Below are positions 241 through 14,359 of a stretch of DNA of 14,359 nucleotides, in pieces. Numbering within the stretch: position 1 is the stretch's first letter; the number at the start of each line of letters is the position of its first letter. Origin of the DNA: a virus; the UHGV virus genome UHGV-0236088. One strand, 5' to 3'. The position numbers and the translations under genes were made by a program. The notes under the pieces were generated by a model, which was given only the letters and a program-made list of their open reading frames with translations, was not told where the DNA came from and did not search any database.

Positions 241-267
241 AATTACAATTTCGCATTGTTAGGAAAT

Positions 268-660: not shown

Positions 661-857
661 TTCTTGCGCTCCTTAATGGCCCGCATGATGTTGATGCGCA
701 TAGCATCAGCGAAAGCGTATATTGTAATGAAAGGCCAGAAAACCAACTCAAACCAAATAACGCCGTCACTACCTACAGCTTTCTGAAGAGCGCCCATTAA
801 AACTACACCAGCAAGGTAAAGGAGAACTACCGCAATAATAAGACATTCAATCATCAT
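657..857 (-). CDS. Small membrane protein, about 66 aa, two predicted transmembrane helices
   Basis: Translation is dominated by hydrophobic runs (IIAVVLLYLAGVVLMGAL and WFELVFWPFITIYAF). Tandem ATG ATG start with GAGGG upstream. Confidence 0.45.
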   Translation of the reverse strand: MMIECLIIAVVLLYLAGVVLMGALQKAVGSDGVIWFELVFWPFITIYAFADAMRINIMRAIKERKK

Positions 858-1104: not shown

Positions 1105-1405
1105 CCCCTCTGTTTTCTGCTTCAGTCATTTTGTATTCTGCAACCAGTTCAGCGCCAAGCAATTCCACTTCCATATCAGCGATACCCTGGAACATCAGAT
1201 AGGCAAAAACTAGGCTTTTAATTCTATCCAGGTCTTCAAGATGGTCTGCGTCAAAAGGCGGTTCAGATACGTGGAAGCATTTAACGTGCGCGTCGTCTTC
1301 AGTAGCCACACGGAAACATGCGCCGCGTTTACCTGCGAATTGTCCAATTTCTTTATCTTCTGGAAAAGATCCACGGAAAACTTTAACACTGATAAATTTA
1401 GACAT
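1082..1405 (-). CDS. Hypothetical protein, 107 aa
   Basis: GAAGGAGAG 7 nt upstream of ATG at 1405. No family recognised. Confidence 0.55.
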   Translation of the reverse strand: MSKFISVKVFRGSFPEDKEIGQFAGKRGACFRVATEDDAHVKCFHVSEPPFDADHLEDLDRIKSLVFAYLMFQGIADMEVELLGAELVAEYKMTEAENRGVEIERIK

Positions 1406-1428
1406 TGATTACTCTCCTTCGTAAGGAA

Positions 1429-1728
1429 TTAAAATTCAGCACCAGGTAAGCTACGCGCTTTATTTACCACATCGTGTTTTAACAATAAACTGGCGTGATA
1501 ACTTATGATCCCCATAATACCGACCTGTATTTCATCATTTTTTGACTTTATTATTAACAACTGGTTTTTAGTGAAGATCCTGTCTCCATCAGTGATATAT
1601 AACCAGTCACCACGTTTGCCAACAACAATGTGAGATCTGCCTAAGCTGTCTTTAAATTCATAATTACAGAAAACATCATCGTTAGGAACTTCAACAAAAC
1701 AGCAAGCAATAAATTTAGCGCTTTTCAT
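1429..1728 (-). CDS. Hypothetical protein, 99 aa (start moved to internal ATG)
   Basis: GAAGGGTG about 6 nt upstream of ATG at 1728 (MKSAKFIACCF...). The longer ORF-track start at 1758 has no RBS. Confidence 0.5.
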   Translation of the reverse strand: MKSAKFIACCFVEVPNDDVFCNYEFKDSLGRSHIVVGKRGDWLYITDGDRIFTKNQLLIIKSKNDEIQVGIMGIISYHASLLLKHDVVNKARSLPGAEF

Positions 1729-1771
1729 GATTACACCCTTCTGATTTGATGGGGCCATCCTGCCCCGTGTT

Positions 1772-1912
1772 TTATGCTTCTTCGCCTCCTTTAAACCCTA
1801 AGCACTCCGCGTACTCGTCAATGCTTAATGCTTCTTCACCTTGTGCCAGTAATTCAAAGTATCTTGCGTACAGTTCGAAAACCCAGGCCGGATATTTAGC
1901 GTTAGCGTTCAT
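1772..1912 (-). CDS. Small hypothetical protein, 46 aa (below the ORF-track cutoff)
   Basis: ATG at 1912 preceded by AAGGGGG. Translation MNANAKYPAWVFELYARYFELLAQGEEALSIDEYAECLGFKGGEEA. It fills the gap between neighbouring genes. Confidence 0.35.
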   Translation of the reverse strand: MNANAKYPAWVFELYARYFELLAQGEEALSIDEYAECLGFKGGEEA

Positions 1913-1922
1913 GGTTTCCCCC

Positions 1923-2195
1923 TTATGCCATACGTGCGAATTCAAGTGATTTGCATTCGTAGTCTTCCTCTGCCTGCATCACCACGTTGTTAATCATATG
2001 GTTTGCATCATCGAAGCCGTATTTTTTGGCGAATTCATCAGCACCGCCTTGGTGGTCATGCTCTGCGTTCATCGCTTCTACATAGTGGAACTCAAGATTG
2101 TTCAGGTAGGGACTAGAAACGCCGTCCTCTTTTTCAATCAGATCCCAAATTGCATTGAAGCGGGCTTTTGTTTCTTCGTTAATCCAGCGTTTCAT
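1923..2195 (-). CDS. Hypothetical protein, 90 aa
   Basis: GGAGGGTAG upstream of ATG at 2195. First gene downstream of the operator/promoter-like element at 2231-2276. Confidence 0.5.
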   Translation of the reverse strand: MKRWINEETKARFNAIWDLIEKEDGVSSPYLNNLEFHYVEAMNAEHDHQGGADEFAKKYGFDDANHMINNVVMQAEEDYECKSLEFARMA

Positions 2196-2230
2196 TTTTC
2201 TACCCTCCGCATCGTTCTCTCTTCAGCTTC

Positions 2231-2276
2231 TTTATAACAAAATGGCGCCACCAGAACAATGCCATTTTGTAAACTT
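2231..2276 (-). promoter_or_regulatory. Promoter/operator-like element, copy 1 of a repeated intergenic motif
   Basis: Minus strand TTGTTC (2259-2254), 17 nt spacer, TATAAA (2236-2231). Flanked by the inverted 9-mers ACAAAATGG and CCATTTTGT. Shares a 40 bp module with 8403-8483. Confidence 0.35.
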
Positions 2277-2293
2277 TGAAGGGTAGATCACAT

Positions 2294-2518
2294 TTATGCT
2301 TCTTCCGTAAAAGTAACCTTCATCGCCCCATCCGAACTACGGACAACATAACGACCAATACCGCCTAGCGGCCCTGCATACCATAAGTGACCGTAAGTGT
2401 CAGTCACGACGATAAACGGAAACTTAGGCGACAACCCCATCGGTTTTTCAGCCGTATACTGTGCGCCTTCTTCAAAACAGCCTAATTTCGATTCGTTACA
2501 CGTTAAAATCATTTTCAT
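2294..2518 (-). CDS. Small protein, 74 aa, member D of a four-gene tandem paralog array
   Basis: ATGA overlap with the upstream gene. Shared blocks FEEGAQY and IVVTDTYGHLWYA. Confidence 0.5.
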   Translation of the reverse strand: MKMILTCNESKLGCFEEGAQYTAEKPMGLSPKFPFIVVTDTYGHLWYAGPLGGIGRYVVRSSDGAMKVTFTEEA

Positions 2519-2754
2519 ACCCCTACATACGAAAACGCAGCAAAAGCACCACCACCAGCACGCGCATAAACAAGTGCCGTGCCATACCCCATCTTATAAA
2601 ATCGCCATAACTGACCCTGGTCGTCAGTAATGGCATGAATATATTCCTGATCCTTTGCGTCAACCAATGCCGCGCCAACCTCGTAGATCTTGCCATTCTT
2701 AAAAAACGCGCTGCATCGTGAGTATGTGCACTGGTATCTATGTTTCCGATTCAT
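2515..2754 (-). CDS. Small protein, 79 aa, paralog C
   Basis: GAGGTG upstream of ATG at 2754. Shared blocks FKNGKIYEVG and HAITDDQGQLWRF. Confidence 0.5.
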   Translation of the reverse strand: MNRKHRYQCTYSRCSAFFKNGKIYEVGAALVDAKDQEYIHAITDDQGQLWRFYKMGYGTALVYARAGGGAFAAFSYVGV

Positions 2755-2764
2755 AGCACCTCAC

Positions 2765-3022
2765 TTATTCCGGTTTACTGCCTTCGCGGGCGCAAAACTC
2801 CGCGATCTCACGGAAATCATGCACTATGCGATAAATATACAAACCAGCGGCGTTATTGATATGGCTAACATAAGCGAAATAAACTTTATCATCATCGCCA
2901 GTTATCGCCATTGCACCATCACCGCCCGGTGCGCCGTGGAGTTGAACGCCGCAATAGATCTTCCCTTCTTCAAAAATATTGCGGTCGCGCGTCTGCAATA
3001 CCTCAAAATATAAATGTTTCAT
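2765..3022 (-). CDS. Small protein, 85 aa, paralog B (start moved to internal ATG)
   Basis: AAAGGGG 6 nt upstream of ATG at 3022 (MKHLYF...). Shared blocks FEEGKIYCGV and MAITGDDDKVYFA. Confidence 0.5.
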   Translation of the reverse strand: MKHLYFEVLQTRDRNIFEEGKIYCGVQLHGAPGGDGAMAITGDDDKVYFAYVSHINNAAGLYIYRIVHDFREIAEFCAREGSKPE

Positions 3023-3032
3023 TGTTGCCCCT

Positions 3033-3245
3033 TTAATAACGTTCAAAGCTGGCAGCAAAACCTACACCGGATATTTCACCGCCTTCATAGCTCGGCCTGA
3101 ATACCCATATTTCGTCATGATTATCAATCAAGGCAAGGCAATTACTCATTGTGTGTGCTTCATTGCCATAAACGATGTGAACGTCATAAATACTCCCAAT
3201 CGTGAAAACACTGTCATTGCTTGAGTATGAGCATTTAACTTGCAT
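3033..3245 (-). CDS. Small protein, 70 aa, paralog A
   Basis: AAAGGGG upstream of ATG at 3245; TGATG overlap with the upstream stop. Shared blocks FTIGSIY and ALIDNHDEIWVF. Confidence 0.5.
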   Translation of the reverse strand: MQVKCSYSSNDSVFTIGSIYDVHIVYGNEAHTMSNCLALIDNHDEIWVFRPSYEGGEISGVGFAASFERY

Positions 3246-3496
3246 CAGAAAACCCCTTTATAATCGACCGTGTATTTTGCCACTAATTTCCATTCACAAT
3301 AGTTTTCCATGTCGCGAGGTTGCCAACCCTTCATCCCTACCGCACTCCGCGCAGCGTGACGGCGATAATAATCGTTATGGCTAGCTATGCACCACGGGTA
3401 CAGGACAAACATATATCCTGCCTCGTTAACCAGGATCGCCATCCGCTTTCCAGTTGCCTTATCTTTCGCCCGGAAATAACTTACCTTGATTTTCAT
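3245..3496 (-). CDS. Hypothetical protein, 83 aa
   Basis: GAGGTAA 7 nt upstream of ATG at 3496. Confidence 0.5.
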   Translation of the reverse strand: MKIKVSYFRAKDKATGKRMAILVNEAGYMFVLYPWCIASHNDYYRRHAARSAVGMKGWQPRDMENYCEWKLVAKYTVDYKGVF

Positions 3497-3707
3497 TTTT
3501 AATTACCTCGATCAGCATTTCTTCTTCCAGGTTAGCCGGGCGTTTACGAAATATCCCGGCAAAAACCAAATCATCCAGGTATCCTTTAGTGCAAAACAGC
3601 TTTTCTTCTCTCACCCCGTCAGAATCGCATCTATAAGCCTTTCCATTTATCAGAAAATAAAAGCTATAAGATGAAGGTGCCAGGCAAACATCCTCGTAAA
3701 CGTCCAT
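3459..3707 (-). CDS. Hypothetical protein, 82 aa
   Basis: GAGGGT upstream of ATG at 3707. Overlaps the next gene by 38 nt. Confidence 0.45.
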   Translation of the reverse strand: MDVYEDVCLAPSSYSFYFLINGKAYRCDSDGVREEKLFCTKGYLDDLVFAGIFRKRPANLEEEMLIEVIKNENQGKLFPGER

Positions 3708-3711
3708 AATA

Positions 3712-3939
3712 TTAACCCTCGACTACTTCCAGCCCGCGTCCCTTATCGCCAACGAAGTCGCCCAGGCTGAACGTATACGACCATGCCGGATTTATGTAAT
3801 GGTCATCAGCACCAGCGGCAATGAGATCAGCACCATTAATCATGCAAGTAATCTCATCGCTATGAACGACATTAACGACCTTACCAACAACCTGTTTCAA
3901 TGACGGGTAGCCGTGATCGTGCAAGAATTTAACTTTCAT
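3712..3939 (-). CDS. Hypothetical protein, 75 aa (start moved to internal ATG)
   Basis: AAGGGAAAG 6 nt upstream of ATG at 3939 (MKVKFLHDHG...). The longer ORF-track start has no RBS. Confidence 0.45.
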   Translation of the reverse strand: MKVKFLHDHGYPSLKQVVGKVVNVVHSDEITCMINGADLIAAGADDHYINPAWSYTFSLGDFVGDKGRGLEVVEG

Positions 3940-4222
3940 ATTTCTTTCCCTTGTAAGTAACAGCATCAGCGATAAGCAATACCGCCAGCATTTCTCCGTC
4001 ATGCAACGGGTCTGGAATAGCAAAAAATATGTCGCTGTTTTTGTCCGGCACTACTACGCGCATATTGCCTTGTTTGTCTTCATGAACAAACCACGGCTTT
4101 TCGTGTGGCTCAAACATACCGAAAAGCAATTTAAGATCTATTTCTTCTCCCTTCGTGAATAACGATACATCCGTTGTAGCGATAACTAACGCTTTCTGAT
4201 CTGCTGCTTTCTTTGCTTTCAT
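3929..4222 (-). CDS. Hypothetical protein, 97 aa
   Basis: GGAGG upstream of ATG at 4222; ATGA overlap with the upstream stop. Confidence 0.5.
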   Translation of the reverse strand: MKAKKAADQKALVIATTDVSLFTKGEEIDLKLLFGMFEPHEKPWFVHEDKQGNMRVVVPDKNSDIFFAIPDPLHDGEMLAVLLIADAVTYKGKKYES

Positions 4223-4452
4223 TCACCTGCCTCCCATCGGTCAATGCTGATTAAAAAGTCACGTATAGCGTGTCGTTCGTCGCGCGTTGGCTTGCGCTTT
4301 CTGTAGATCTTGAAGTCAAACCATTCTTTTTCTTGTTCGAAATCCATGTCGTAAGCAAGCGCCTCAATATATCCGCAGTCGTGATACTGGTACGCCACGC
4401 CAGCACGAACAAAAAAGCGGGTTTTATCCCGCTTGTGTTCATAAATACGCAT
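4219..4452 (-). CDS. Hypothetical protein, 77 aa
   Basis: GGGG 7 nt upstream of ATG at 4452. Confidence 0.5.
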   Translation of the reverse strand: MRIYEHKRDKTRFFVRAGVAYQYHDCGYIEALAYDMDFEQEKEWFDFKIYRKRKPTRDERHAIRDFLISIDRWEAGE

Positions 4453-4462
4453 ATTTACCCCG

Positions 4463-4693
4463 TTATGCAGTTGTGTAGCTGTCTACCAGCTTTTCATCCT
4501 TCATTCTTGCAAGCTGTGCAATGTTCATCGTGTAGCCGCCATCAGAGAAAAGCCACTCCGCAGCCTTGCGACGAAAAACAATATCATCATGGTTGTGCGT
4601 CCATGTAGCGATAACCACGCGCTTTCCGTCAGTGGCAAACATTGTTAATTCATTATCAACTACGTCGATAGCCTGCCATATTTTTAGCTCCAT
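4463..4693 (-). CDS. Hypothetical protein, 76 aa
   Basis: GGGGA 7 nt upstream of ATG at 4693. Confidence 0.5.
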   Translation of the reverse strand: MELKIWQAIDVVDNELTMFATDGKRVVIATWTHNHDDIVFRRKAAEWLFSDGGYTMNIAQLARMKDEKLVDSYTTA

Positions 4694-5049
4694 GATTTAT
4701 CCCCGTAAATTTTGAATAATTCCCGTGCTTCTTGATCTTCAAATAACTTCATATGCAGATCATGCAGGCGGCGCATTGTGCGGAAACGCGGTCGGAACTC
4801 CTGTCTGTTTTTAATAAACTTACCGCCAATTGAATAAATATGACCGTATGAATACCATCTATCCCCGACCCAAATTAGATAAATTTCACCCTCATAATTA
4901 AATTTGATTGTAAGCTCGTCAACCTCCATTATTAATCCTTTATCGAGGATATCATTCAGCATGTCGTCCCATTCTTTGAGGAATTGTTGCTGATACATGC
5001 CAAAAATTGTATTTGCAGCGTGGCAAAGGTAATCAAGGATTATTTGCAT
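4684..5049 (-). CDS. Hypothetical protein, 121 aa
   Basis: ORF track entry with a plausible GTGGTGA RBS. Confidence 0.5.
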   Translation of the reverse strand: MQIILDYLCHAANTIFGMYQQQFLKEWDDMLNDILDKGLIMEVDELTIKFNYEGEIYLIWVGDRWYSYGHIYSIGGKFIKNRQEFRPRFRTMRRLHDLHMKLFEDQEARELFKIYGDKSWS

Positions 5050-5053
5050 ATTG

Positions 5054-5266
5054 TCACCACATCATATAATAAACGTTATCGTAAGCTAATTGGTCCGCGT
5101 CTTCTTGCGTCATGTGCCGCGCTTCCAGAAAGAAATCTTCGTTATGCCATTCACAAACAAGCATTCGCGCCCATTTGCGGCGCTGGCGTTTATTGTGTCG
5201 CAGATCATCAAAAACCTTTAACGCTTTGTCATATGACCTTACCAGGCGTTTACGGTTACTTTTCAT
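5054..5266 (-). CDS. Hypothetical basic protein, 70 aa
   Basis: AGGAG/GGTGAG upstream of ATG at 5266. Arg/Lys-rich N-terminal half. Confidence 0.5.
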   Translation of the reverse strand: MKSNRKRLVRSYDKALKVFDDLRHNKRQRRKWARMLVCEWHNEDFFLEARHMTQEDADQLAYDNVYYMMW

Positions 5267-5471
5267 TTCTCACCACTCCTATTTCCTTGATCTCAATATT
5301 GCGCAACCGGACGTCGCACGGCGTTTCAGATTTACCAGTAAGCGCCAGCGTCAGGTTTTCAGGTGTCGTATAGAGAATTATCTCTTTACCCGTGCTAAAT
5401 TTAATTTCTATGCGGATCTCGCTTTCGTCGCCGCACAACACACGACTGATTGACAGGCCAGCTTTTTTCAT
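5256..5471 (-). CDS. Hypothetical protein, 71 aa (start moved to internal ATG)
   Basis: AAGGTGGGGGAG upstream of ATG at 5471; ATGA overlap with the upstream stop. Confidence 0.5.
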   Translation of the reverse strand: MKKAGLSISRVLCGDESEIRIEIKFSTGKEIILYTTPENLTLALTGKSETPCDVRLRNIEIKEIGVVRNEK

Positions 5472-5776
5472 TGCTCCCCCCACCTTAACATCCAATTCAC
5501 ATCACATTTAATTGCGAATACCTTAACAGGATCAGGGCCGAATAATGGATGCGTGATAGTTTTTACTTCGTACCCGAAATAAGGCAGGTTTATGTTCCGG
5601 TGCGCTTCGTGGCTGGCTGGATACCCCAGCTTAATGATCAGGCGTTCATATTCCCGCCCCTCCAGGCGTTTACGCCAATAGTCATTGTAAAGCCTGTATT
5701 CTTCCACCTTCTTTCCCGCCCGGATGGCGTGGAAATATTCCCCTTTCAGGTTCAAGTGTAGGTCTTTACTTGCCAT
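5468..5776 (-). CDS. Hypothetical protein, 102 aa; possible ASCH/PUA-like fold (weak)
   Basis: N-terminal HLNLKGEYFHAIRAGKKVEEYR resembles the ASCH/DUF3850 beta-barrel signature (Y/F..I..G.K..E.R). Recalled from memory only, no search run. Confidence 0.45.
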   Translation of the reverse strand: MASKDLHLNLKGEYFHAIRAGKKVEEYRLYNDYWRKRLEGREYERLIIKLGYPASHEAHRNINLPYFGYEVKTITHPLFGPDPVKVFAIKCDVNWMLRWGEQ

Positions 5777-6035
5777 CGCTATGATCCTGTAAGCAGTCGT
5801 TGTAGCCTTCGATGTATCCGGTTAATCCTGTGTTACTTACTGACCAATCAGCCGAACGGCGCTTGATGGCCTTGTCCATAGTCATCTCGTCACCTGGCCC
5901 GCCTGGCTCGATGTATTTTCTTAAATCCCTTACTATCCACGACCCTAATTGTTGCGTATCACTGCACACACGCGCCGTTAATGTCAGATTATTAACCAGC
6001 TTTGCGAATAGATGTTCTTTTAATTTAGGCTTCAT
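5766..6035 (-). CDS. Hypothetical protein, 89 aa
   Basis: GAGGTGAAGG upstream of ATG at 6035. Confidence 0.5.
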   Translation of the reverse strand: MKPKLKEHLFAKLVNNLTLTARVCSDTQQLGSWIVRDLRKYIEPGGPGDEMTMDKAIKRRSADWSVSNTGLTGYIEGYNDCLQDHSDGK

Positions 6036-6225
6036 CCTTCACCTCGCGACGATAGATTTCTACTGGCTTAACCGGAATAGCGTTAAAATCCCCTTCATCC
6101 AGTGCGGCAATAAACGTTAGCGCCAACCGTGCTTCAACACCGCTTAAATACTTGCACCATGCATCACCGTTATAATCTTCAAAAAGAATAATCACTTTTT
6201 TCATGTTTATCTCTTGTTGTTTCAT
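6025..6225 (-). CDS. Hypothetical protein, 66 aa, translationally coupled to Q
   Basis: TAATG overlap with the Q stop codon. An alternative ATG at 6204 would give MKKVIILF.... Confidence 0.45.
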   Translation of the reverse strand: MKQQEINMKKVIILFEDYNGDAWCKYLSGVEARLALTFIAALDEGDFNAIPVKPVEIYRREVKDEA

Positions 6226-6947
6226 TATTCACCCCGTGTCACTCGTTTAATTTCGTTATCAGCCTGCGCCTCTTCTTTGAACAATTCAGCAATGGCGTCT
6301 TCATAGAAAGCACGGTATTTCTTCCACCACGTTGATCGGCTTACCGGAAATACAAGCTGATTAACCGCACGCCGGACAAGATCTACAGGGAAACGCGAGT
6401 ACCCGCGCCCGCCGCAATGCTGGCACGTTTTGAACACTGGCATTTCCGCTGCTTCACTGGCTGCTTTATCCGGTATCTCGCCGCGCCCTTTGCATCGTTT
6501 ACAATGATTGCGAACTTTTCCATGCCCCTTGCATTTTTTGCAAAGGTGTTTTTCTCCGTAGTCGTCAAACGTAAATTTATATCCGCCGCAATCCATACAA
6601 GTTTTTTCTGTCGCGGCACTCTGGCAGTAATCCCGAAACGCGAAAACGGCAACAAGAATAATAAGATCATTGCGTTTGTCCTCGTCCAGCTCCATGATGT
6701 ATTCGTAATCTTTTGCCATAGCTCTTAAACGCTCTGTAAGCAAAACTACGGCCCTGTGTTTTTCGGCTTGCGATAATTCCATCTTCCCTAAAAAAGCGCT
6801 ATAACCAAGCTCTACGCGCGATTGCGCCATACCTGCTGCGGTTAGTGCATCAGTAGTATTAAGCGAGTCTGGGGACGTGCCCCGGCTTTCATCTGACAAA
6901 CGCGGTGATTTTGGGAGGTGGAATTTAAGAATAGATTCCAAATTCAT
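6225..6947 (-). CDS. Late-gene antitermination protein Q (Phage_antitermQ-type)
   Basis: 240 aa. N-terminus MNLESILKFHLPKSPRLSD..., the segment MAQSRVELGYSAFLGKMELSQAEK, DYCQSAAT, several CxxC pairs, GYSRFP and the C-terminal KEEAQADNEIKRVTR match the Q family of Stx and Qin-type lambdoid phages as I recall it. GGGGG RBS. Confidence 0.7.
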   Translation of the reverse strand: MNLESILKFHLPKSPRLSDESRGTSPDSLNTTDALTAAGMAQSRVELGYSAFLGKMELSQAEKHRAVVLLTERLRAMAKDYEYIMELDEDKRNDLIILVAVFAFRDYCQSAATEKTCMDCGGYKFTFDDYGEKHLCKKCKGHGKVRNHCKRCKGRGEIPDKAASEAAEMPVFKTCQHCGGRGYSRFPVDLVRRAVNQLVFPVSRSTWWKKYRAFYEDAIAELFKEEAQADNEIKRVTRGE

Positions 6948-7131: not shown

Positions 7132-7533
7132 TTACCACCACATATTAGTCAAGTATTCGTTAATATCCGGTAACAGGTCGCCGCGTTCGCGTACCTTGAT
7201 AAACAACCGCCCTCTTTTTACCTTCCGGCAGCGGACAAATTTCATTGCGTCAACCTGGCTATCATCAGCCCAAAAACCGGAATAAGTTATAGCGTCAAAT
7301 AATGCCTTCCCTACATTGTCAATATCGCGGCGTCTGTTATCTGGCGGTGCAATATACACCGTTATTGATAGCCTACACTTAAGATTAATTTTCAGATTAA
7401 GCAGTTTTATAATGTCTTTTACCTGCTCCCTGTATTCCTTACCTTCCTTGCTTATATAGTGGAAACCGCGCGAATGCCGGTAATATTTATTGTTCGATGG
7501 CGGGTAAGGCAGGCTAAAAGTATATTCATTCAT
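7132..7533 (-). CDS. rusA: RusA-family Holliday junction resolvase
   Basis: 133 aa. MNEYTFSLPYPPSNNKYYRHSRG...SKEGKEYREQV...PPDNRRRDIDNVGKALFDAITYSGFWADDSQV closely parallels E. coli RusA (LPWPPSNNRYYRH...DRRRRDLDN...FWLDDAQV). ATGA overlap with ninG. Confidence 0.8.
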   Translation of the reverse strand: MNEYTFSLPYPPSNNKYYRHSRGFHYISKEGKEYREQVKDIIKLLNLKINLKCRLSITVYIAPPDNRRRDIDNVGKALFDAITYSGFWADDSQVDAMKFVRCRKVKRGRLFIKVRERGDLLPDINEYLTNMWW

Positions 7534-8135
7534 GCTGCCTTTCTCCTTAAGGCGTCCAATTTAGCCTGATAGACTTTTATGATCTCCTTGCATTCTTCGA
7601 TCGCCCATTTATGAGTTTCGTTGTTGTTCTCCAGCGCTTCCACCCTGGCAAGGCCAATTTTCCTAATCAGCGCTGGGCGATATGCTTCTATGTTGCCATC
7701 TAATGTCTGGTTGCAGTGCCTGCATTGTTTGTGGCAATTATCCTCGTTAAAACGAAGGTGCCCGGCGGCGGCAACCGTTCTATAGTGTCCGGCATCTGCT
7801 CCGCATTGTTCGTAACAGTAAGTCCCGCATGATATGCACGGCTGACCCGCGTCACGTTCGCGGATATAGGCATTAAATACCGCTTGTGCCTGCTTCAACC
7901 AATAACTACGCGGATTTAACTGCTTCCGCTTCCGGTTGCGTTCTTCCCGCTGGCTATCACGGCGTTTCTTCCGTTCCATAGCCTTCATAGCCTTCTCACG
8001 GTCGCGGCATAGCTGATCAAACTTCAGCTCTTCCAGACACTCATCACTGCACCACGTTTGATTGTGATATTTAGGCTCAAAAAAAACGCCGCAGCACTTG
8101 CAACGGCGTCTTATTGGTTTTTTAGGTTTCTGCAT
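7530..8135 (-). CDS. ninG: NinG/Rap-like recombination-promoting nuclease
   Basis: Start set at ATG 8135 with AGGGGTGG RBS (MQKPKKPIRRRCKCCGVFFEP...). Motifs RRRCK, WCS.EC, PRSYWLKQAQ, IRERD, PCISCGT, DAGHYRT, LRFNE, HKQC, CNQ, IEECK and YQ.KL follow lambda NinG nearly block for block. The 30-codon N-terminal extension in the ORF track is rejected. Confidence 0.8.
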   Translation of the reverse strand: MQKPKKPIRRRCKCCGVFFEPKYHNQTWCSDECLEELKFDQLCRDREKAMKAMERKKRRDSQREERNRKRKQLNPRSYWLKQAQAVFNAYIRERDAGQPCISCGTYCYEQCGADAGHYRTVAAAGHLRFNEDNCHKQCRHCNQTLDGNIEAYRPALIRKIGLARVEALENNNETHKWAIEECKEIIKVYQAKLDALRRKAA

Positions 8136-8149
8136 AAAAACCACCCCTA

Positions 8150-8326
8150 TTATTTTTGATTCTCTGTTTCGTTCAGCCTTTCGGTGTGTCCGGCCCTTAG
8201 CCAATGATCTAAGCATTCGTTGCACTCGTTACAGCCTCCTTTCTTTGTGCTGCATACATTGCACATTGCACGCATGACGCTTTCTCGTTCATAGTCGTCA
8301 TGCCATTGGTAATTATCAAAAGACAT
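8150..8326 (-). CDS. NinF-like small cysteine-rich protein, 58 aa
   Basis: AAAGGGAGGGAG RBS before ATG at 8326. MSFDNYQWHDDYERESVMRAMCNVCSTKKGGCNECNECLDHWL resembles lambda NinF as recalled (YQKESVERAL.C..C...C..C), and it sits immediately before ninG. Confidence 0.45.
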   Translation of the reverse strand: MSFDNYQWHDDYERESVMRAMCNVCSTKKGGCNECNECLDHWLRAGHTERLNETENQK

Positions 8327-8402
8327 AATGCTCCCTCCCTTTAAGGTGATTTCTACGCATTTCAGCGCTGCCGGATTTTTAAAGAGCATTTCGTTTGCTT
8401 GA

Positions 8403-8483
8403 AGTATACAAAATGGATACGCCAGAACAAGGTGAATGGCGCCATTATGTGATCCACATCACGCAATGGCGCCATTTTGTAAA
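8403..8483 (-). promoter_or_regulatory. Promoter/operator-like element, copy 2 (upstream of the NinF-NinG-RusA-Q block)
   Basis: Minus strand TTGTTC (8430-8425), 16 nt spacer, TATACT (8408-8403). Two perfect 12 bp palindromes AATGGCGCCATT at 8435-8446 and 8465-8476, centres 30 bp apart. 9-mers ACAAAATGG and CCATTTTGT at each edge. Confidence 0.4.
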
Positions 8484-8485
8484 TT

Positions 8486-9250
8486 TCAGTCCGGTAAAAC
8501 GCGGTTAAGCGTAGTACGATTGATGGCCCGGTCGTTAGCCAGGAATACAGCACGGGCAAAGCCGCGCGGCGTTAGTGAGCGGATCATCTTAGTGCGTTTC
8601 GACTTTCCTCCTAACTTCGCGTGCTGTTTGCTGTCTTCCCATTCATCCGGCATAGGTACAGGCCGGAATAGCGGCTGCTTAAATCCATTCCCGCACCAGA
8701 TACAAGTTTTCTTCGTGTATGCGTCGCGGTCGGCGATGTATTCCGGGAAAGCAGGATGTTTGTCGTCTTCCGGCAGGTAGCCACCGTAAGCGCACGGATT
8801 GAAGATAAAATCCGGCTTACGCCATAACGTTGACAGTGCGCCCACCGGATTTTCCACCATCCACGGGACGTGATACATGTCAGCCAGCGTTTCTACCAGT
8901 TTTGCGTTATATGCCGCCTTCACCTGGAAGTCAGGATCTTTTTCACGCTTGCTGGCAAACCAACGAGCGCCGGACACGGCTAGATGGTCGCATGGCGGGA
9001 AGGCCAGAATAATGTCAGGATCTGGATAAACAGACAAATCAGGGGAGAACATCACCAGGAAATGGCTGTCAATCCATACGTTAACGTATTCAATATTCGG
9101 ATGAATGATTTTTACGCCTTCATAGTCGCCGTGGTTAGCGCCGTCATAGTTGAAGCAATAACACTTATAGCCAGCGTCAGCCCAATCTTTAACGGCGTAC
9201 CCGCTGCCGTCGTACAACGACCACACCACCCAATTTTTAAGCCCGCTCAT
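8486..9250 (-). CDS. C5-cytosine DNA methyltransferase-like protein (short, atypical motifs)
   Basis: 254 aa. Motif I-like SLYDGSGYAV, followed by AGYKCYCFNYD; motif IV-like AFPPCDHLAVSG (PPC where PCQ is usual); motif VI-like MVENPVGALS (ENP where ENV is usual). GAGGG RBS. ATGA overlap with the upstream gene. Confidence 0.5.
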   Translation of the reverse strand: MSGLKNWVVWSLYDGSGYAVKDWADAGYKCYCFNYDGANHGDYEGVKIIHPNIEYVNVWIDSHFLVMFSPDLSVYPDPDIILAFPPCDHLAVSGARWFASKREKDPDFQVKAAYNAKLVETLADMYHVPWMVENPVGALSTLWRKPDFIFNPCAYGGYLPEDDKHPAFPEYIADRDAYTKKTCIWCGNGFKQPLFRPVPMPDEWEDSKQHAKLGGKSKRTKMIRSLTPRGFARAVFLANDRAINRTTLNRVLPD

Positions 9251-9750
9251 TTTCTGCCCTCAAACGTAAAATAGCGGCGCATGATGATAGTGATCACCGT
9301 TACCGCTGCCATTTTTGAGATGAATTGAATAGCTGATATTTCCGGCATAAATGCCATAAACGATAGCGTGGGAAAAATTAACGCATCGCCGATAGCTGAA
9401 GCTATATTTGCAGGCCAGCGTTTCGAATCGAAATCACCAGGTAAAACACGGTAAACGCCGCCAGAAATAAGCGCACCGGAAACAACCGCAACGAATGACG
9501 CGATCGCCACCATTCCTGCATCATAGTTTATCAGCACCGTAATTGCGCCAGCGGCGGCGCATGTTGTAGCCGACCATTTCAGGCCGCCGTCATATAACAA
9601 GAAGTCACGGATCATCATATTGACACACACTGCGGCTACCGTGGTGATCGGAATTACCCACGGGCCACAGTGGTTAACAATAAGATTGATGATCACGAAA
9701 ACGGCGACATAAACGCAGGCTAATAACCTGTCAATTGTCACCCTTTTCAT
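9247..9750 (-). CDS. Multi-pass inner-membrane protein, about 167 aa; family uncertain
   Basis: Start set at ATG 9750 (MKRVTIDRLLACVYVAVFVIINLIV...). Four to five hydrophobic segments. The ORF-track start at 9792 is a TTG with no RBS. Confidence 0.45.
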   Translation of the reverse strand: MKRVTIDRLLACVYVAVFVIINLIVNHCGPWVIPITTVAAVCVNMMIRDFLLYDGGLKWSATTCAAAGAITVLINYDAGMVAIASFVAVVSGALISGGVYRVLPGDFDSKRWPANIASAIGDALIFPTLSFMAFMPEISAIQFISKMAAVTVITIIMRRYFTFEGRK

Positions 9751-10030
9751 TTGGATCGTACCTCTTATCACGAATAGCTTCAGCTCTATCAAACTTCAAA
9801 TCAAGTCGAGTTGAAATGCAACCACATTGAGGGTTAAGCATAGAAGGCGGCAATCCCTTACAACTGGTTATAGCTTCATCTTTTATTAATCCACCATTCA
9901 GCGGCATATCAAAAACAGCCTGTTTCTTTCTTTGTTCTTCCTCACGTTCCGTTAATATTTGCTCAGCTTTTAGCGCGTTATAGCTAATTAAATCAATTAG
10001 TGTGTCTGTCGGATCGCTGTTATTGCTCAA
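9731..10030 (-). CDS. Hypothetical protein, 99 aa; TTG start or downstream part of a TGA-interrupted gene
   Basis: In the same reading frame as the 10073-10231 ORF, separated only by a TGA at 10075-10073 and 14 sense codons. GAGG lies 5 nt before the TTG at 10030. Confidence 0.35.
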   Translation of the reverse strand: MSNNSDPTDTLIDLISYNALKAEQILTEREEEQRKKQAVFDMPLNGGLIKDEAITSCKGLPPSMLNPQCGCISTRLDLKFDRAEAIRDKRYDPNEKGDN

Positions 10031-10072
10031 AATAGCCTCTAAACGCGCCTCCTTGAGACAAATTAGCAGATC

Positions 10073-10231
10073 TCATACATCAAGCGTGGTTAAATCTGCC
10101 CCCTTCTTAGCGTTGTAAATAGTGGCTATTTTTGGCGCTGATTTTTCCTCTTTTTTGTCGTAGCCGTTTTGCTTACCTCTTTGCTCTATGGTTTCTGATG
10201 CAAGTCTTAATAAATCTGCTGCCTTAGTCAT
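10073..10231 (-). CDS. Small protein, 52 aa; possibly the N-terminal part of a TGA-interrupted gene
   Basis: ATG at 10231 overlaps the stop of the methyltransferase gene. Translation MTKAADLLRLASETIEQRGKQNGYDKKEEKSAPKIATIYNAKKGADLTTLDV then TGA. Confidence 0.35.
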   Translation of the reverse strand: MTKAADLLRLASETIEQRGKQNGYDKKEEKSAPKIATIYNAKKGADLTTLDV

Positions 10232-10763
10232 TATTTGCGCCTCTCGCGTATAGCTCTTTACGTGTTATCTGCGTGAAAATACATTCATGTCTGCACCGTG
10301 GATGCCAGATCAAGAACAAGCTCCCTTTATTGTTTCCGCTTGCTGGTTTCCCTGTCGCGGCATTTATAAAAGCCAGCCGCCCGCGCGTAATTAATCGGCA
10401 TTCGTTTGCCGTCTCCACGCCGTTCATAAACCAGTTAACAGAAATGTCAGCGGGCAATAACATTACACAGCCAATGTGATTTCGTTGATGTTCAAGCGCC
10501 GCCTTATCAACGAATGGCCCCGGATTAGAATATGGCGGATTCATCCAGACATACTCACCAGGCATCGCCACCGCTCCCCACGGATAATGGAGCGTGTCCA
10601 TTTCTTCGGTTATATATCGCGGTATTAATGCGTTTGCCTTGTTTGCCGCCACATCCGCGACGAATTCGAATTCCAGATCCATTCCTCTAAAAACAGGTTT
10701 CGGCGTCTGCCATAGGTCTTTTATTTCTTTCGGCGTGTTGCTGCCGCCGTAATCATTTTTCAT
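10224..10763 (-). CDS. Phage Dam-family DNA N6-adenine methyltransferase
   Basis: 179 aa. WQTPKPVF near the N-terminus and the catalytic NPPY (VWMNPPYSNPGPFV) are the signature of the small phage Dam family (T1-type). AAGGGGG RBS. Confidence 0.8.
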   Translation of the reverse strand: MKNDYGGSNTPKEIKDLWQTPKPVFRGMDLEFEFVADVAANKANALIPRYITEEMDTLHYPWGAVAMPGEYVWMNPPYSNPGPFVDKAALEHQRNHIGCVMLLPADISVNWFMNGVETANECRLITRGRLAFINAATGKPASGNNKGSLFLIWHPRCRHECIFTQITRKELYARGANND

Positions 10764-10772
10764 TACGCCCCC

Positions 10773-11024
10773 TTAGAAATAATCCTGATCAGTTCCCCAT
10801 CGGTTGTTTAAATACCCCACCAGCCAGACAAAACGCTCGATACTGATTAGCGGGGCGACCTTGCGATAATGCTTGTCTAATATCAGCCGCGTGGCTTTAT
10901 CGCTGTAGCCGTTCTTTTCCACCTCCGCTTTGCAGGCCGAAAGCGCCGCGCGGGCGGCAGTTTTTACGGCGTTAAATTGCGGCTCTGACATATTGAATAA
11001 AGCCATAGGATCACCATGTATCAT
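10773..11024 (-). CDS. Hypothetical protein, 83 aa
   Basis: ORF track entry. Weak RBS; the start could be the internal ATG giving MALFNM.... Confidence 0.4.
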   Translation of the reverse strand: MIHGDPMALFNMSEPQFNAVKTAARAALSACKAEVEKNGYSDKATRLILDKHYRKVAPLISIERFVWLVGYLNNRWGTDQDYF

Positions 11025-11247
11025 CCCAATCCGGCGCGGCAGTCAAGCAAAAACCAATGAATGCGCTCACAGCCAATAAAGCGCGGGCTGCAAAAAGAAT
11101 ATTCCCAATGTTGTTAAATTCAGGCAGCGACCACGTAATAAACATACCCCCCAGCATAATAACACCGATAACAGTCAGGGCCGCCAGGAAAACAAAAAGC
11201 GTAGCCAAAAGCCACGCCCCCAACCAGTTAAAAAAGCTCTTAAGCAT
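11011..11247 (-). CDS. Small membrane protein, about 78 aa, two or three predicted transmembrane helices
   Basis: Start set at ATG 11247 with GAGGACG RBS (MLKSFFNWLGAWLLATLFVFLAALTVIGVIMLGGMF...). The ORF-track start at 11262 is a TTG. Confidence 0.45.
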   Translation of the reverse strand: MLKSFFNWLGAWLLATLFVFLAALTVIGVIMLGGMFITWSLPEFNNIGNILFAARALLAVSAFIGFCLTAAPDWDDTW

Positions 11248-11248
11248 T

Positions 11249-11452
11249 TTAAACGTCCTCAATTACCCCGCCTTTCACGCGCTCTTTAATATCCCATACG
11301 TGAGGCTTGCATATTTCTTGATAGTAGTGATCCGGCCTGCTGCCGAAATACCATTTGCCATCCATATAAAAATAAACGCCAGAAAAATTTCCTGGCGCTG
11401 CCTTTGTTGCTGCTTCTGGAATTTTCCATTCCATGTAATGTTTAAATATCAT
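11249..11452 (-). CDS. Hypothetical protein, 67 aa
   Basis: ORF track entry. The RBS is distant, so the start is uncertain. Confidence 0.4.
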   Translation of the reverse strand: MIFKHYMEWKIPEAATKAAPGNFSGVYFYMDGKWYFGSRPDHYYQEICKPHVWDIKERVKGGVIEDV

Positions 11453-11636
11453 GAGTTTTTAAATAACCCCTTCTGAATGCTTTGATGTAAAGTCCTAGCC
11501 TTCTTATATGCTGAACGCCATCAATGATGCGCACTAAATAAATTGCACCATTTGTGTCAGATACAAAATGACAGCCAAAACCAATACCAACCAACTTCAG
11601 GTTGTCAGGTATTCTATAATCAGTTTTCTGTTCCAT
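11442..11636 (-). CDS. Hypothetical protein, 64 aa
   Basis: GAGGTGAGG upstream of ATG at 11636. Confidence 0.5.
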   Translation of the reverse strand: MEQKTDYRIPDNLKLVGIGFGCHFVSDTNGAIYLVRIIDGVQHIRRLGLYIKAFRRGYLKTHDI

Positions 11637-11644
11637 GCCTCACC

Positions 11645-11732
11645 TCATATGGTATTCAATAAGCCACCTGATAAACAGACATAAGGCAATAAAACCCCAG
11701 CAACAGCACATATAAAACAATGTGTCGTCCAT
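11645..11732 (-). CDS. Candidate hydrophobic micro-protein, 29 aa (below the ORF-track cutoff)
   Basis: ATG at 11732 with GAGG 7 nt upstream. Translation MDDTLFYMCCCWGFIALCLFIRWLIEYHMR. Its stop overlaps the RBS of the next gene. Confidence 0.3.
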
Positions 11733-11734
11733 AA

Positions 11735-11953
11735 TTAAGCCTCAATAACACCGTAATCAAACGTGCCTAAATACCGTTCGATACTTACAACCTCAATACC
11801 ATCAATACACCGTTTCCACACAGACACCTGGCTTTCATTTTCTCTGAAGTGCATATTAGAAAGCACTTCATCGGCTGGATAGTCTTTCCCGGCGACGTAG
11901 GCATCGTGACCTACGCCACCTTCTACGCAATAAAGCATCAATTCGCGTTCCAT
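11735..11953 (-). CDS. Hypothetical protein, 72 aa (start moved to internal ATG)
   Basis: GGAGGAAG 6 nt upstream of ATG at 11953 (MERELMLYCVEGG...). Region 11954-12052 is then intergenic and carries the repeated 13-mer. Confidence 0.45.
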   Translation of the reverse strand: MERELMLYCVEGGVGHDAYVAGKDYPADEVLSNMHFRENESQVSVWKRCIDGIEVVSIERYLGTFDYGVIEA

Positions 11954-12052
11954 TTTTGCTTCCTCCGCACCGTAAACCTTTTGATTTCGGCTTACAAAAT
12001 GGATATGCAATTACAATACAAAATGTATATTTATGTGATCGGAATTACTCGG

Positions 12053-12673
12053 TTAATGCAGTACACGTTTTCCCTGTTCAGGCGTCGGCTGTGCGTTTTT
12101 CCGTGCGTCATTAAGCACAGCGATAGCCGCCTGTACGCCGAAATCATTTGCACGCATATCATTGCCAACCATTTCACCGTAAAACAATGGCATGAGCGAT
12201 TTTACTTCTTCCTCTTTGTGGCCTTCCTCAATGTATTTCTGCAACATCTTAACCTCAAAGATATTTTTCATCAGGCCGCGCATAGAATGCAGTGAAACAC
12301 TACAAAGCTGATCCTTGTTCAACGGGAAAATAACAGCACTTCCGAACGCGAGCGGATCAACCTCTTCCGGCACTGGTACGCGTCCGAATTCTTCCTCCAT
12401 GCGCTTCACAAAAGTAAGAGAGAATACATAACGCGCTACCGATGTTTTTTCTTCCATACTTAAAGACACGTAATCGCGGATTGACGCCCCCATCACAATA
12501 TCAACAACCTGTAGCGCCAGATTCAAATCAGCGTCATACGCGCCAGCTTCCATATCTTTCAATACTTCGTGATAATCTTTAATTTCCACTTCGTGAAAGT
12601 TTGCATCATCTGTATAGCGAGTGATCAACATACCTTCATTACCGAGAGAGTAAGCTGTTTTGATGTCGTTCAT
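12053..12673 (-). CDS. Hypothetical acidic protein, 206 aa
   Basis: Longest unassigned ORF. AAGGA RBS before ATG at 12673. No family recognised by eye. Confidence 0.55.
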   Translation of the reverse strand: MNDIKTAYSLGNEGMLITRYTDDANFHEVEIKDYHEVLKDMEAGAYDADLNLALQVVDIVMGASIRDYVSLSMEEKTSVARYVFSLTFVKRMEEEFGRVPVPEEVDPLAFGSAVIFPLNKDQLCSVSLHSMRGLMKNIFEVKMLQKYIEEGHKEEEVKSLMPLFYGEMVGNDMRANDFGVQAAIAVLNDARKNAQPTPEQGKRVLH

Positions 12674-12686
12674 GATATTTATCCTT

Positions 12687-13019
12687 TTATAGTGGGTGAT
12701 GCCATTTCATTTCTGTTTCTGAATTAAGCGGGTTTCCTTCGCTTGAAAGGAATAAATCACGCTCCCGTTTCAGTTCTTCCGGGCTTATTTCTATTTCATC
12801 AATCTGACCGAACGATCCCGGCATCATTCGTTTTAAATCAGATAGCGGACGCATAAGGCCGCAGCCGCGTAACAGCATATCGACCGCGAATTGTCTACGT
12901 CCGGCGGCGTCATTAAAGCGCCGTGCCCAGGGCACAACCACGATCCTGCGTTCGAATTCGATAAATAGTGATAGCTTGTTTGTTTCGCTATCATATGCTA
13001 TATGGAATTTAATTTTCAT
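12687..13019 (-). CDS. Hypothetical protein, 110 aa
   Basis: GAGGTG upstream of ATG at 13019. Confidence 0.5.
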   Translation of the reverse strand: MKIKFHIAYDSETNKLSLFIEFERRIVVVPWARRFNDAAGRRQFAVDMLLRGCGLMRPLSDLKRMMPGSFGQIDEIEISPEELKRERDLFLSSEGNPLNSETEMKWHHPL

Positions 13020-13200
13020 TTAACACCTCGACGTATTGCTCAAGATGCCATGTACCAACTTCATCCATGTTTTCGTCGTATATAATGACCTCTCCGCCTT
13101 GCCTGAATCTGAAAGCAGTAGCTGTAAATTCACGGCCCCACCACGCCTTTAATCGCTCCCCACCTTTCATGTGTTTAACCTTTACTTCTTTTATGGCCAT
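13009..13200 (-). CDS. Hypothetical protein, 63 aa
   Basis: ORF track entry. Weak RBS; an alternative ATG lies at 13170. Confidence 0.4.
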   Translation of the reverse strand: MAIKEVKVKHMKGGERLKAWWGREFTATAFRFRQGGEVIIYDENMDEVGTWHLEQYVEVLNEN

Positions 13201-13463
13201 ACGCCGAACATCCCATTCAGTCCGGCGAACAATTTCCGCCAGTGGTTTTCAACATAAGCCCGGAACGGCTTAACGCGAACATTGCGGGCCTTCAGTTCAA
13301 TCTTGTCGAAGAAACGCGGCTCTATAATTGTTCCGTCCAGATATTTAACCAGGATCGGGCGCTCAAGATCGTTATATGTCTTGTTCAGCACAACCAGACC
13401 AGGGTCACTACGATATTCAGACAAAACAACAAGATCGCCCTCTTTTACATTCCAAGTAACCAT
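13191..13463 (-). CDS. Hypothetical protein, 90 aa
   Basis: AAGGTGG upstream of ATG at 13463; single-nucleotide overlap with the stop of the preceding micro-ORF. Confidence 0.5.
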   Translation of the reverse strand: MVTWNVKEGDLVVLSEYRSDPGLVVLNKTYNDLERPILVKYLDGTIIEPRFFDKIELKARNVRVKPFRAYVENHWRKLFAGLNGMFGVWP

Positions 13464-13582
13464 CACATCACCACCTTACCAATAAAAGCCAATACCGCAG
13501 CAAGTGCTCCGCAAAATACAATCGTAAACAGGAAACAAATAACGCAAAACGCGACCGTCACAATATCCTTACCGACTTTCAT
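13463..13582 (-). CDS. Candidate single-pass hydrophobic peptide, 39 aa (below the ORF-track cutoff)
   Basis: GAGG 7 nt upstream of ATG at 13582. Translation MKVGKDIVTVAFCVICFLFTIVFCGALAAVLAFIGKVVM. Stop overlaps the next start. Confidence 0.4.
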   Translation of the reverse strand: MKVGKDIVTVAFCVICFLFTIVFCGALAAVLAFIGKVVM

Positions 13583-13590
13583 GATTGGCC

Positions 13591-13704
13591 TCACATGTTA
13601 GTGATGAGTTTAATGATCGCTACCGTGATATAAAGCGATACGCTGAGATACAGCACGGCGATAGATAAAGCCGCAAGCAATGCGGCAATTTTTGCAAGGT
13701 TCAT
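13591..13704 (-). CDS. Candidate single-pass hydrophobic peptide, 37 aa (below the ORF-track cutoff)
   Basis: GGAGGGTGG upstream of ATG at 13704; ATGA overlap with the upstream stop. Translation MNLAKIAALLAALSIAVLYLSVSLYITVAIIKLITNM. Confidence 0.4.
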   Translation of the reverse strand: MNLAKIAALLAALSIAVLYLSVSLYITVAIIKLITNM

Positions 13705-13925
13705 TTGCCACCCTCCGCAATGAACTTATTAAGCCATTTGTTATTAGCCAGCCGTTCGGTATCTTCGCCGAATGATTTACGGTCGCTTAATTCCTGGCGA
13801 GTAAGCTGAGGACATTTATCGTGCCACCCCGCAGACGTTTCGAACTCATACAGGCCGCCGTCAAAATAAATAAGCTCATCACGACCGTCAGGAATTTCCT
13901 TGTCTACTTCTTTTTCTTTAATCAT
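13701..13925 (-). CDS. Hypothetical protein, 74 aa
   Basis: GAGGTG 6 nt upstream of ATG at 13925. Confidence 0.5.
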   Translation of the reverse strand: MIKEKEVDKEIPDGRDELIYFDGGLYEFETSAGWHDKCPQLTRQELSDRKSFGEDTERLANNKWLNKFIAEGGK

Positions 13926-13937
13926 GATAACACCTCA

Positions 13938-14216
13938 TTAATCGTTAATGACCTGGCCCATACGCCCGCGATATTTGCGCATACGTGGATCGACATATTC
14001 AGGCCAATGCATATCCGGTTTTCTTTGCAGTGGGTAAAAACTTGCCTGCCAGTTGTCGAACCATATTTGCTTTGCGTACAGGTCACTAAATCTTTTCGCC
14101 ATCCGATCCGCTGCCGTGCCGCATAAAAAAAGCCCGCGATCGATTTGATCACGGGCTTCTCTTAAAACTTTCTCTTTTGTTCGCGGCGGCGGTGGTGCTT
14201 TTAAATAATTACCCAT
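13938..14216 (-). CDS. Hypothetical protein; start uncertain (92 aa from ATG 14216, or 54 aa from ATG 14102)
   Basis: ORF track entry. The long form would be translated through the terminator-like hairpin at 14124-14158; the short form MAKRFSDLYAKQIWF... starts just downstream of it. Confidence 0.4.
   Translation of the reverse strand: MGNYLKAPPPPRTKEKVLREARDQIDRGLFLCGTAADRMAKRFSDLYAKQIWFDNWQASFYPLQRKPDMHWPEYVDPRMRKYRGRMGQVIND
14124..14158 (-). terminator. Intrinsic terminator-like hairpin downstream of ssb
   Basis: Minus strand AAGCCCG (14158-14152), 15 nt loop, CGGGCTT (14136-14130), followed by a T-run ending TTTTTTTAT at 14124. Lies about 75 nt past the ssb stop. Confidence 0.5.
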
Positions 14217-14231
14217 CGCTAACCTATTGAA

Positions 14232-14359
14232 TCAGAATGGAATATCATCGTCGAAGTCCATCGGCGGCGGATTATTCCCGTTATTATTTTGAGGCGGTGG
14301 CGCTTTCTGCTGCTGGCCTTGCTGCTGGCCTTGTTGGTTAACGTTCATGAATTCAAATT
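14232..14359 (-). CDS. ssb: Single-stranded DNA-binding protein, C-terminal end (gene starts beyond the window)
   Basis: Frame ends ...MNVNQQGQQQGQQQKAPPPQNNNGNNPPPMDFDDDIPF then TGA at 14234-14232. A Gly/Gln/Pro-rich linker followed by the acidic tip DFDDDIPF is diagnostic of bacterial and phage SSB. Confidence 0.85.
   Translation of the reverse strand, partial: FEFMNVNQQGQQQGQQQKAPPPQNNNGNNPPPMDFDDDIPF

Follow-up and report, generated by a model that had tools for sequence, protein, structure and literature searches.

A compact phage gene for a probable DNA cytosine-C5 methyltransferase in an mEp021-related temperate coliphage or prophage

Introduction

Phages K42 and KarlJaspers share 95.4% identity across their genomes, and K42 carries a 711-bp dcm gene that has been tied to the retron Ec86 (bioRxiv 10.1101/2023.08.16.553469): phages that escape this retron all had lesions in dcm, and expression of the K42 Dcm was toxic only in the presence of the retron. 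With K42 Dcm, the msDNA contained high levels of 5mC, as determined by LC-MS against a 5mC standard, and this rise was lost in a C82A/E128A/K175A/K176A mutant of the enzyme (bioRxiv 10.1101/2023.08.16.553469). Mutation of a CCTGG in the msDNA stem abolished defence, and CCWGG was proposed as the K42 site, which was inferred from host Dcm and not mapped; the msDNA of control cells was low in 5mC, the test strain being MG1655 (bioRxiv 10.1101/2023.08.16.553469). MG1655 is dcm+. Later papers cite the published version of the K42 work and repeat its conclusion.

Other C5 enzymes differ in several respects from the 254-aa phage protein considered here. E. coli Dcm and its M.EcoRII-type relatives (PF00145) belong to the same superfamily and share the predicted chemistry, but Dcm has 472 aa, a large target-recognition domain (TRD) and a partner, Vsr. 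The catalytic domain of DNMT3A/DNMT3B (PDB 5YX2, 6U8P) shares only 12–17% sequence identity with the phage protein, and DNMT3 itself has clear motifs IX and X and forms an oligomer with DNMT3L. CmoX is a phage DNA cytosine C5-carboxymethyltransferase that uses Cx-SAM and is characterised by an SPPC motif and by Arg350 in motif X (PMC12783734). The CmoX of Synechococcus phage S-B43 (PDB 8YF3) comprises 372 aa with full motifs VIII–X, and cmoA and ligase genes are located next to its gene. In clades III–VI of the TET-associated C5-methyltransferases from metaviromes, motifs VIII–X are lost or disrupted, and the proteins are weakly active or inactive (Burke et al., 2021, PMC8256090).

Here, a gene of this kind is described from a 14,359-nucleotide stretch of virus genome UHGV-0236088; this whole stretch is referred to as the window. 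A preceding sequence-only reading had proposed a C5-methyltransferase-like protein that is small for its class.

Results

A full-length gene of a widespread phage family

The gene, predicted to encode a compact C5-cytosine DNA methyltransferase, occupies exactly positions 8486–9250 on the minus strand and reads from an ATG at 9250 to a TGA at 8486–8488. The sequence-only reading had named the same interval and a product of 254 aa but no strand; translation bears this out and places the ORF on the minus strand, while translation of the plus strand of this interval yields many stop codons. A Shine-Dalgarno-like GAGGG (9257–9261, minus strand) lies 6 nt ahead of the ATG and may function as such. 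The ORF is intact and full length compared to its homologs. A chance ORF or a wrong-strand artefact was considered and ruled out by the homolog counts and the invariant residues described below.

The exact 254-aa sequence is present in NCBI RefSeq as WP_272450247.1, “DNA cytosine methyltransferase [Escherichia coli],” which belongs to a 90% cluster with 626 members. A database search returned 2,613 homologs at E ≤ 1e-3; the family amounts to 1,386 clusters at 50% identity and was found by tblastn in 1,517 phage records, including Drexlerviridae, rV5-like phages and phage JSE, as well as phages of Klebsiella, Salmonella, Vibrio, Campylobacter, and Arthrobacter. Nearly all members are 220–260 aa long, and most relatives fall within 226–262 aa, as does the 254-aa protein. 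Residues 5–247 match PHROG 757, “DNA methyltransferase” (E 4e-88). The family has a single domain, and most members end right after an RSLTPRGFA.AV element, a pattern to which the 254-aa protein conforms.

The K42 work bears on this gene via KarlJaspers (Drexlerviridae, BASEL), whose Bas06_0055 (QXV82308.1) is 61% identical over 232 residues (E 5e-101). Bas06_0055 is a 711-bp gene annotated as “Dcm-like C5 cytosine methyltransferase,” with a product of 236 instead of 254 aa. The KarlJaspers/K42 protein belongs to the same family and has the same architecture, with the Cys, the Glu, and the pair of Lys residues at matching positions: in a pairwise alignment with Bas06_0055, C82, E128, K175 and K176 of K42 correspond to C87, E133, K180 and K181 of the 254-aa protein. 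KarlJaspers also carries a Dam-type methyltransferase gene, as is the case here. The two proteins differ in the residues around the catalytic Cys (PPCDH here, PPCTD in KarlJaspers) and in an extra tail of the 254-aa protein (residues 240–254). The phages differ as well, since a temperate mEp021-like phage or prophage is concerned here and a virulent T1-like phage in the case of KarlJaspers.

Pfam and NCBIfam scans of the 254-aa protein gave nothing above threshold, and PF00145 was absent at E ≤ 0.1. Among the relatives, PF00145 was the only recurring Pfam family (11 of 69 at E ≤ 1); two of them, P0015 (24.7 bits) and P0096 (28.5 bits), exceed its 22-bit cut-off, over motifs I–IV only. A PDB sequence search with the single protein found nothing, a 30-sequence profile retrieved only DNMT3B at an insignificant E of about 0.8, and a 69-sequence profile gave only chance matches to dehydrogenases. 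The proposed relationship to C5-methyltransferases is supported: the protein has a C5-methyltransferase fold, so that the lack of this fold named as refuting by the sequence-only reading did not occur, and is, with 254 aa, small for the class. By itself it stays below the Pfam and NCBIfam thresholds.

Among 5,426 complete E. coli genomes, 32 have the gene in their chromosome, which is consistent with a prophage. There, PGAP annotates it as “DNA cytosine methyltransferase” in some cases and as “hypothetical protein” in others; of 12 E. coli genomes listed, 9 have the region as a “hypothetical protein” that bears no methyltransferase name. Structure comparison also brought up proteins of more than 1,100 aa from uncultured phages, which are split into segments in BFVD and of which one segment matches the compact methyltransferase fold. 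Two such entries, A0A6J5SE15 and A0A6J5NPY6, show 25–29% identity and Foldseek E-values of 3e-10 to 3.5e-12 to the methyltransferase; one of the two is described as “Helicase/UvrB, N-terminal.”

The catalytic half of the protein

Conservation was assessed in an alignment of 69 diverse family members, down to 33% identity, and canonical enzymes were compared with the family profile by hhalign; the HhaI and DNMT3A sequences used are identical to PDB chains 10mh_A and 5yx2_A. The three motifs that had been recognised by eye, LYDGSG, PPC (within FPPC) and ENP, are present, with LYDGSG at residues 12–17, FPPC at 84–87 and ENP at 133–135. Motif I (LYDGSG; 9200–9217, minus strand) is the SAM-binding glycine loop after strand beta-1, and a strand at residues 8–12 precedes it in the structure model. 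Its counterparts in the hhalign alignments are LFDG in DNMT3A, LFAGIGG in E. coli Dcm and FAGGGG in CmoX. Motif IV (FPPC; 8990–9001, minus strand) contains Cys87, the predicted catalytic nucleophile, which is invariant among the 69 members; the motif lines up with the PC found in DNMT3A, in Dcm and in CmoX. In motif VI (ENP; 8846–8854, minus strand), Glu133, the predicted general acid acting on the cytosine N3, and Pro135 are invariant, Asn134 is at least 90% conserved, and the motif aligned weakly with the ENV present in both E. coli Dcm and DNMT3A.

The residue that follows the catalytic Pro-Cys is an Asp here and a Thr in most of the family (consensus PPCTD), compared to Asn in DNMT3A (S-P-C-N) and Gln in HhaI and Dcm. 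The catalytic motifs had been called atypical and taken to leave room for an altered activity; they do not point to a different chemistry, as the Pro-Cys is intact and ENP is fixed across the family. The family profile aligned to DNMT3A at E 5.7e-4, with motifs I and IV superimposed, to CmoX at E 2.7e-4 over motifs I–IV only, and to E. coli Dcm at E 0.14 over motifs I–VI only. Judged by these alignments, only the N-terminal half (motifs I–VI) is alignable to canonical C5 enzymes. Because the Dcm alignment is limited to motifs I–VI, at E 0.14, “Dcm-like” is a label and no evidence for a common specificity; no similarity to the recognition half of Dcm was detected in the phage protein by hhalign.

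A short C-terminal half

Downstream of motif VI, the segment DAYTKKTCIWCGNGF (residues 176–190; 8681–8725, minus strand) contains K180/K181 and resembles a motif VIII strand, the match to QxRxR having been made by eye only. D176, Y178, K180, T182 and W185 are invariant or at least 90% conserved among the 69 members, and the structure model places a strand at 182–187, preceded by the conserved Y178-T-K180-K181-T182. Alignments of a motif VIII segment HMM with HhaI, DNMT3A, CmoX and Dcm were insignificant. Past this strand, only about 65 residues follow, all of them helical or loop in the model. Between the motif VIII-like and motif IX-like segments lie residues 191–223, a strongly conserved, basic stretch of about 30 residues for which neither hhalign nor segment HMMs (HhaI, DNMT3A, CmoX, Dcm) detected homology to a known TRD. 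The impression that no target-recognition domain can be identified by eye is hence shared by these searches: a large TRD is absent, and only about 30 residues are available.

Overlapping with this stretch is a conserved basic C-terminal element, KLGGKSKRTKMIRSLTPRGFARAVF (residues 212–236; 8543–8617, minus strand), a candidate for a mini recognition element joined to a segment that resembles motif IX. Its highly conserved core, KLGGKS.RTK.IRSLTPRGFA.AV, forms the protein end in most members, and R224, P228, G230 and A234 are at least 90% conserved. By eye, the element resembles motif IX of E. coli Dcm, RRLTPRECARLMGF, while segment HMMs were insignificant; likewise, RSLTPRGFARAV looks motif IX-like (Dcm RRLTPRECARLM, HhaI RKLHPRECARVM), a resemblance that carries no statistical support. 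For R224-S-L-T-P-R-G-F-A-R-A-V, the best local HMM match in Dcm was at RRLTPRECARLM, with a negative bit score, and RSLTPRGFARAVF scored insignificantly as either motif IX or motif X in hhalign comparisons of the C-terminal half with M.HhaI and DNMT3A and with segment HMMs. A position equivalent to Arg350 of CmoX was returned by neither hhalign nor segment HMMs.

No GN-type motif X (G-N-x-V) occurs after residue 236. Most relatives stop 3–6 residues past “AVF.AN,” and the 254-aa protein has a 15-residue C-terminal tail (residues 240–254) of low model confidence. In the structure model, helix 229–239 might be a structural substitute for the motif X helix. The family is thus a C5-methyltransferase in trimmed form; in structure, the closest analogue is the DNMT3 catalytic domain with its small TRD. 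Metavirome clades III–VI resemble it in that the catalytic Cys is kept and motifs VIII–X are disrupted or missing (PMC8256090). These clades are tied to TET/JBP genes, whereas no TET/JBP match was found among the window ORFs scanned with Pfam; moreover, unlike in these clades, a member of the compact phage family has been reported to be active.

A nin-like operon with a companion Dam-family gene

Eight phage records match the 2.8 kb around the gene; the identity is 92.5% for Escherichia phage MagusPhagus and 86–88% for temperate coliphages of the mEp021 group (mEp010, mEp554, mEp013, mEp021, and others). The gene order is that of mEp021, i.e., Dam, DUF6378 protein, membrane protein with six transmembrane segments, cytosine methyltransferase, terminator, NinF-like, NinG, Holliday-junction resolvase (RusA), and Q. 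The counterpart in mEp021 is mEp021_33, a “putative DNA cytosine methyltransferase.” A vsr partner is absent among the neighbours of the gene (membrane protein, NinF-like, NinG).

Two ORFs upstream and in the same direction, positions 10224–10763 (minus strand) encode a Dam-family N6-adenine DNA methyltransferase of 179 aa. The N6-adenine methyltransferase proposed for this interval is well supported: the product matches PF05869 (E 1.9e-51; 174.5 bits, cut-off 28.1), TIGR01712, “phage N-6-adenine-methyltransferase” (140 bits, cut-off 97), and PHROG 111 (E 4e-63), and its translation contains an NPPY motif. The two methyltransferase genes had been described as lying side by side. They do share an operon, but are separated by two ORFs, one of DUF6378 type and one for a membrane protein. 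With a protein of C5-methyltransferase fold and a Dam-type enzyme in one operon, the phage probably methylates both adenine and cytosine, as had been suggested.

The DUF6378 ORF (9731–10231, minus strand) is homologous to mEp021_31, which has 165 aa (Pfam DUF6378, E 1.9e-8). An in-frame stop at 10073–10075, where mEp021 has Trp53 (LDV*DLL versus LDVWDLM), splits it into pieces of 52 and 99 aa; this broken ORF is either a pseudogene or a variant of the strain, unless the stop stems from an error in sequencing. The membrane-protein ORF (9247–9792, minus strand) encodes a predicted multi-pass protein of 181 aa that belongs to PHROG 4899 (unknown function). Its stop codon shares bases with the ATG of the methyltransferase (ATGA), an overlap that suggests translational coupling of the two genes. 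Pfam and NCBIfam scans of the membrane protein were empty, and an assignment as a YhhQ/VUT-type transporter was dropped, PHROG 4899 being the only match. The link to a membrane protein is not family-wide, because the dcm gene of KarlJaspers has no neighbour of a size comparable to the 181-aa membrane-protein gene.

Some observations concern the remainder of the window. The Q-type antiterminator (6225–6947, minus strand; PF03589, E 1.1e-29) contains several CxxC pairs and a sub-threshold match to the DnaJ CXXCXGXG zinc finger (E 1.1e-5; 26.0 bits, cut-off 32.7). The NinG ORF (7530–8225, minus strand) has a GTG start and encodes 231 aa compared to 201 aa annotated in mEp021, and the NinF-like ORF (8150–8389, minus strand), which overlaps it, encodes 79 aa compared to 58 aa in mEp021. 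The true starts of both ORFs are probably internal, since the PHROG and Pfam matches begin at residue 22 in NinG and at residue 35 in the NinF-like protein. The minus-strand ORFs in 1–6000 and 10770–14359 are nearly all small (50–206 aa) and either belong to PHROGs of unknown function or have no match, and none has a Pfam domain; such a content of small ORFs is typical of the early region of the mEp021 group.

A hairpin downstream of the gene, and CCWGG and GATC sites

Just 3′ of the stop codon, a strong hairpin (8432–8477, minus strand) is formed by two copies of the 12-bp palindrome AATGGCGCCATT, located at 8435–8446 and 8465–8476, i.e., 30 bp apart (two exact copies, with 0.07 expected), and includes an inner GTGAT/ATCAC pair. 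The fold of the surrounding 96-nt RNA (8395–8490) has an energy of -33.4 kcal/mol (z -4.3), and the annotation of mEp021 has a terminator at the corresponding position. The hairpin is not a canonical intrinsic terminator, because it has no U-tract; it is probably the 3′ boundary of the gene or a terminator-like element, and, alternatively, its palindromes might represent paired sites of operator type.

Neither CCWGG nor GATC is avoided in the window. There are 30 CCWGG sites (13.4 ± 3.4 expected) and 68 GATC sites (43.4 ± 5.9 expected), each above every dinucleotide-preserving shuffle. This excess was rejected as evidence for specificity, phage methylation being indistinguishable from that by host Dam and Dcm.

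Discussion

The 254-aa protein is most probably (at a rough probability of 0.85) an orphan SAM-dependent DNA cytosine-C5 methyltransferase of the compact “Dcm-like” phage family (PHROG 757), carried by an mEp021-related temperate coliphage or prophage. The gene, its fold, the conservation of its motifs, its homology and its context are established here, whereas 5mC formation and retron triggering are taken from the literature on a close relative of the 61% ortholog. Ordinary methyl transfer is the most likely activity, because the K42 relative is reported to make 5mC and the four residues mutated in that enzyme are conserved here.

By the standard mechanism of C5-methyltransferases, a cytosine would be flipped into the pocket, Cys87 of motif IV would attack C6, and Glu133 of motif VI would protonate N3. 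SAM, bound in the motif I loop, would then donate its methyl group to C5, and beta-elimination would free the 5-methylcytosine. Expression is presumed to take place during lytic growth, because the gene lies in an early “nin-like” operon. In conjunction with Dam, the enzyme might pre-methylate progeny DNA against restriction enzymes that are blocked by 5mC or m6A, which would amount to an anti-restriction role, and a predicted side effect is the triggering of retron Ec86/Eco1 in hosts that carry it. In the BASEL study, no simple link was found between these methyltransferase genes and restriction resistance (PMC8594841).

Several alternatives to this assignment of an ordinary DNA methyltransferase have to be weighed. 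A real C5-methyltransferase whose main substrate is not site-specific double-stranded DNA, but single-stranded or hairpin DNA, or RNA/tRNA as for DNMT2, is highly unlikely. Even less likely is the transfer of a group other than methyl, e.g., of a carboxymethyl group from Cx-SAM, the product of E. coli CmoA, by a CmoX-like enzyme, a kind of modification for which the sequence-only reading had left room. For an enzyme close to the 61% ortholog, LC-MS with a 5mC standard showed 5mC as the product, and the hhalign match to CmoX, which spans motifs I–IV only, is no better than that to DNMT3A. FPPC stands where CmoX has SPPC, so that the Ser is a Phe here. As to an Arg in the position of motif X, R233 is variable in the family (K, L, A, C, E) and R229 is less than 90% conserved in the diverse set; DNMT3A, too, has an Arg in motif X (GRSW), yet uses SAM. 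Finally, a Pfam scan for accessory genes, which covered 22 of the longest ORFs of the window, gave no match to CmoA, a ligase, TET/JBP or a glycosyltransferase. The suggestion of a non-methyl modification thus loses ground on both counts, the scanned ORFs and the 5mC reported for the K42 relative.

Least probable of all is a catalytically dead or degenerate relic that has only a DNA-binding or regulatory role, or no function. This would fit with scores below the Pfam and NCBIfam thresholds, the lack of a recognisable motif X, and the inactivity of truncated phage C5-methyltransferases in another study (PMC8256090); the premature stop in the neighbouring DUF6378 ORF also indicates that the region is not free of decay. 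Against it stand the intact, full-length ORF and the catalytic Cys and Glu, which, like many further residues, are invariant across hundreds of clusters at 50% identity. In addition, mutation of the catalytic site abolished the effect of the K42 enzyme.

A different question is what an active enzyme of this kind would recognise. A minimal C5-methyltransferase that lacks motif X and in which about 30 residues stand in for a TRD might possess a specificity other than CCWGG, which could be shorter or relaxed, dependent on structures such as stem-loops, or reliant on dimerisation as in DNMT3. This reading is tentative and rather unlikely, but it stays in consideration for two reasons: CCWGG was deduced for K42 from host Dcm and not mapped, and host Dcm apparently left the same msDNA unmethylated in a dcm+ strain.

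Much of this is already known: RefSeq lists the exact protein under the correct name, and the family, of which one member has been characterised, is common among phages. For annotation, the case is of value in that the Pfam and NCBIfam HMMs miss the 254-aa protein. The main scientific point is how so small an enzyme recognises its target, and which sequence this is, a modest biochemical question. For the bacterial host, a prophage gene is flagged whose product could act as a DNA methylase and might activate retron Ec86; if the reading as a minimal enzyme with another specificity were true, the prophage copy would combine broad protection of the phage with a built-in trigger of retron Ec86.
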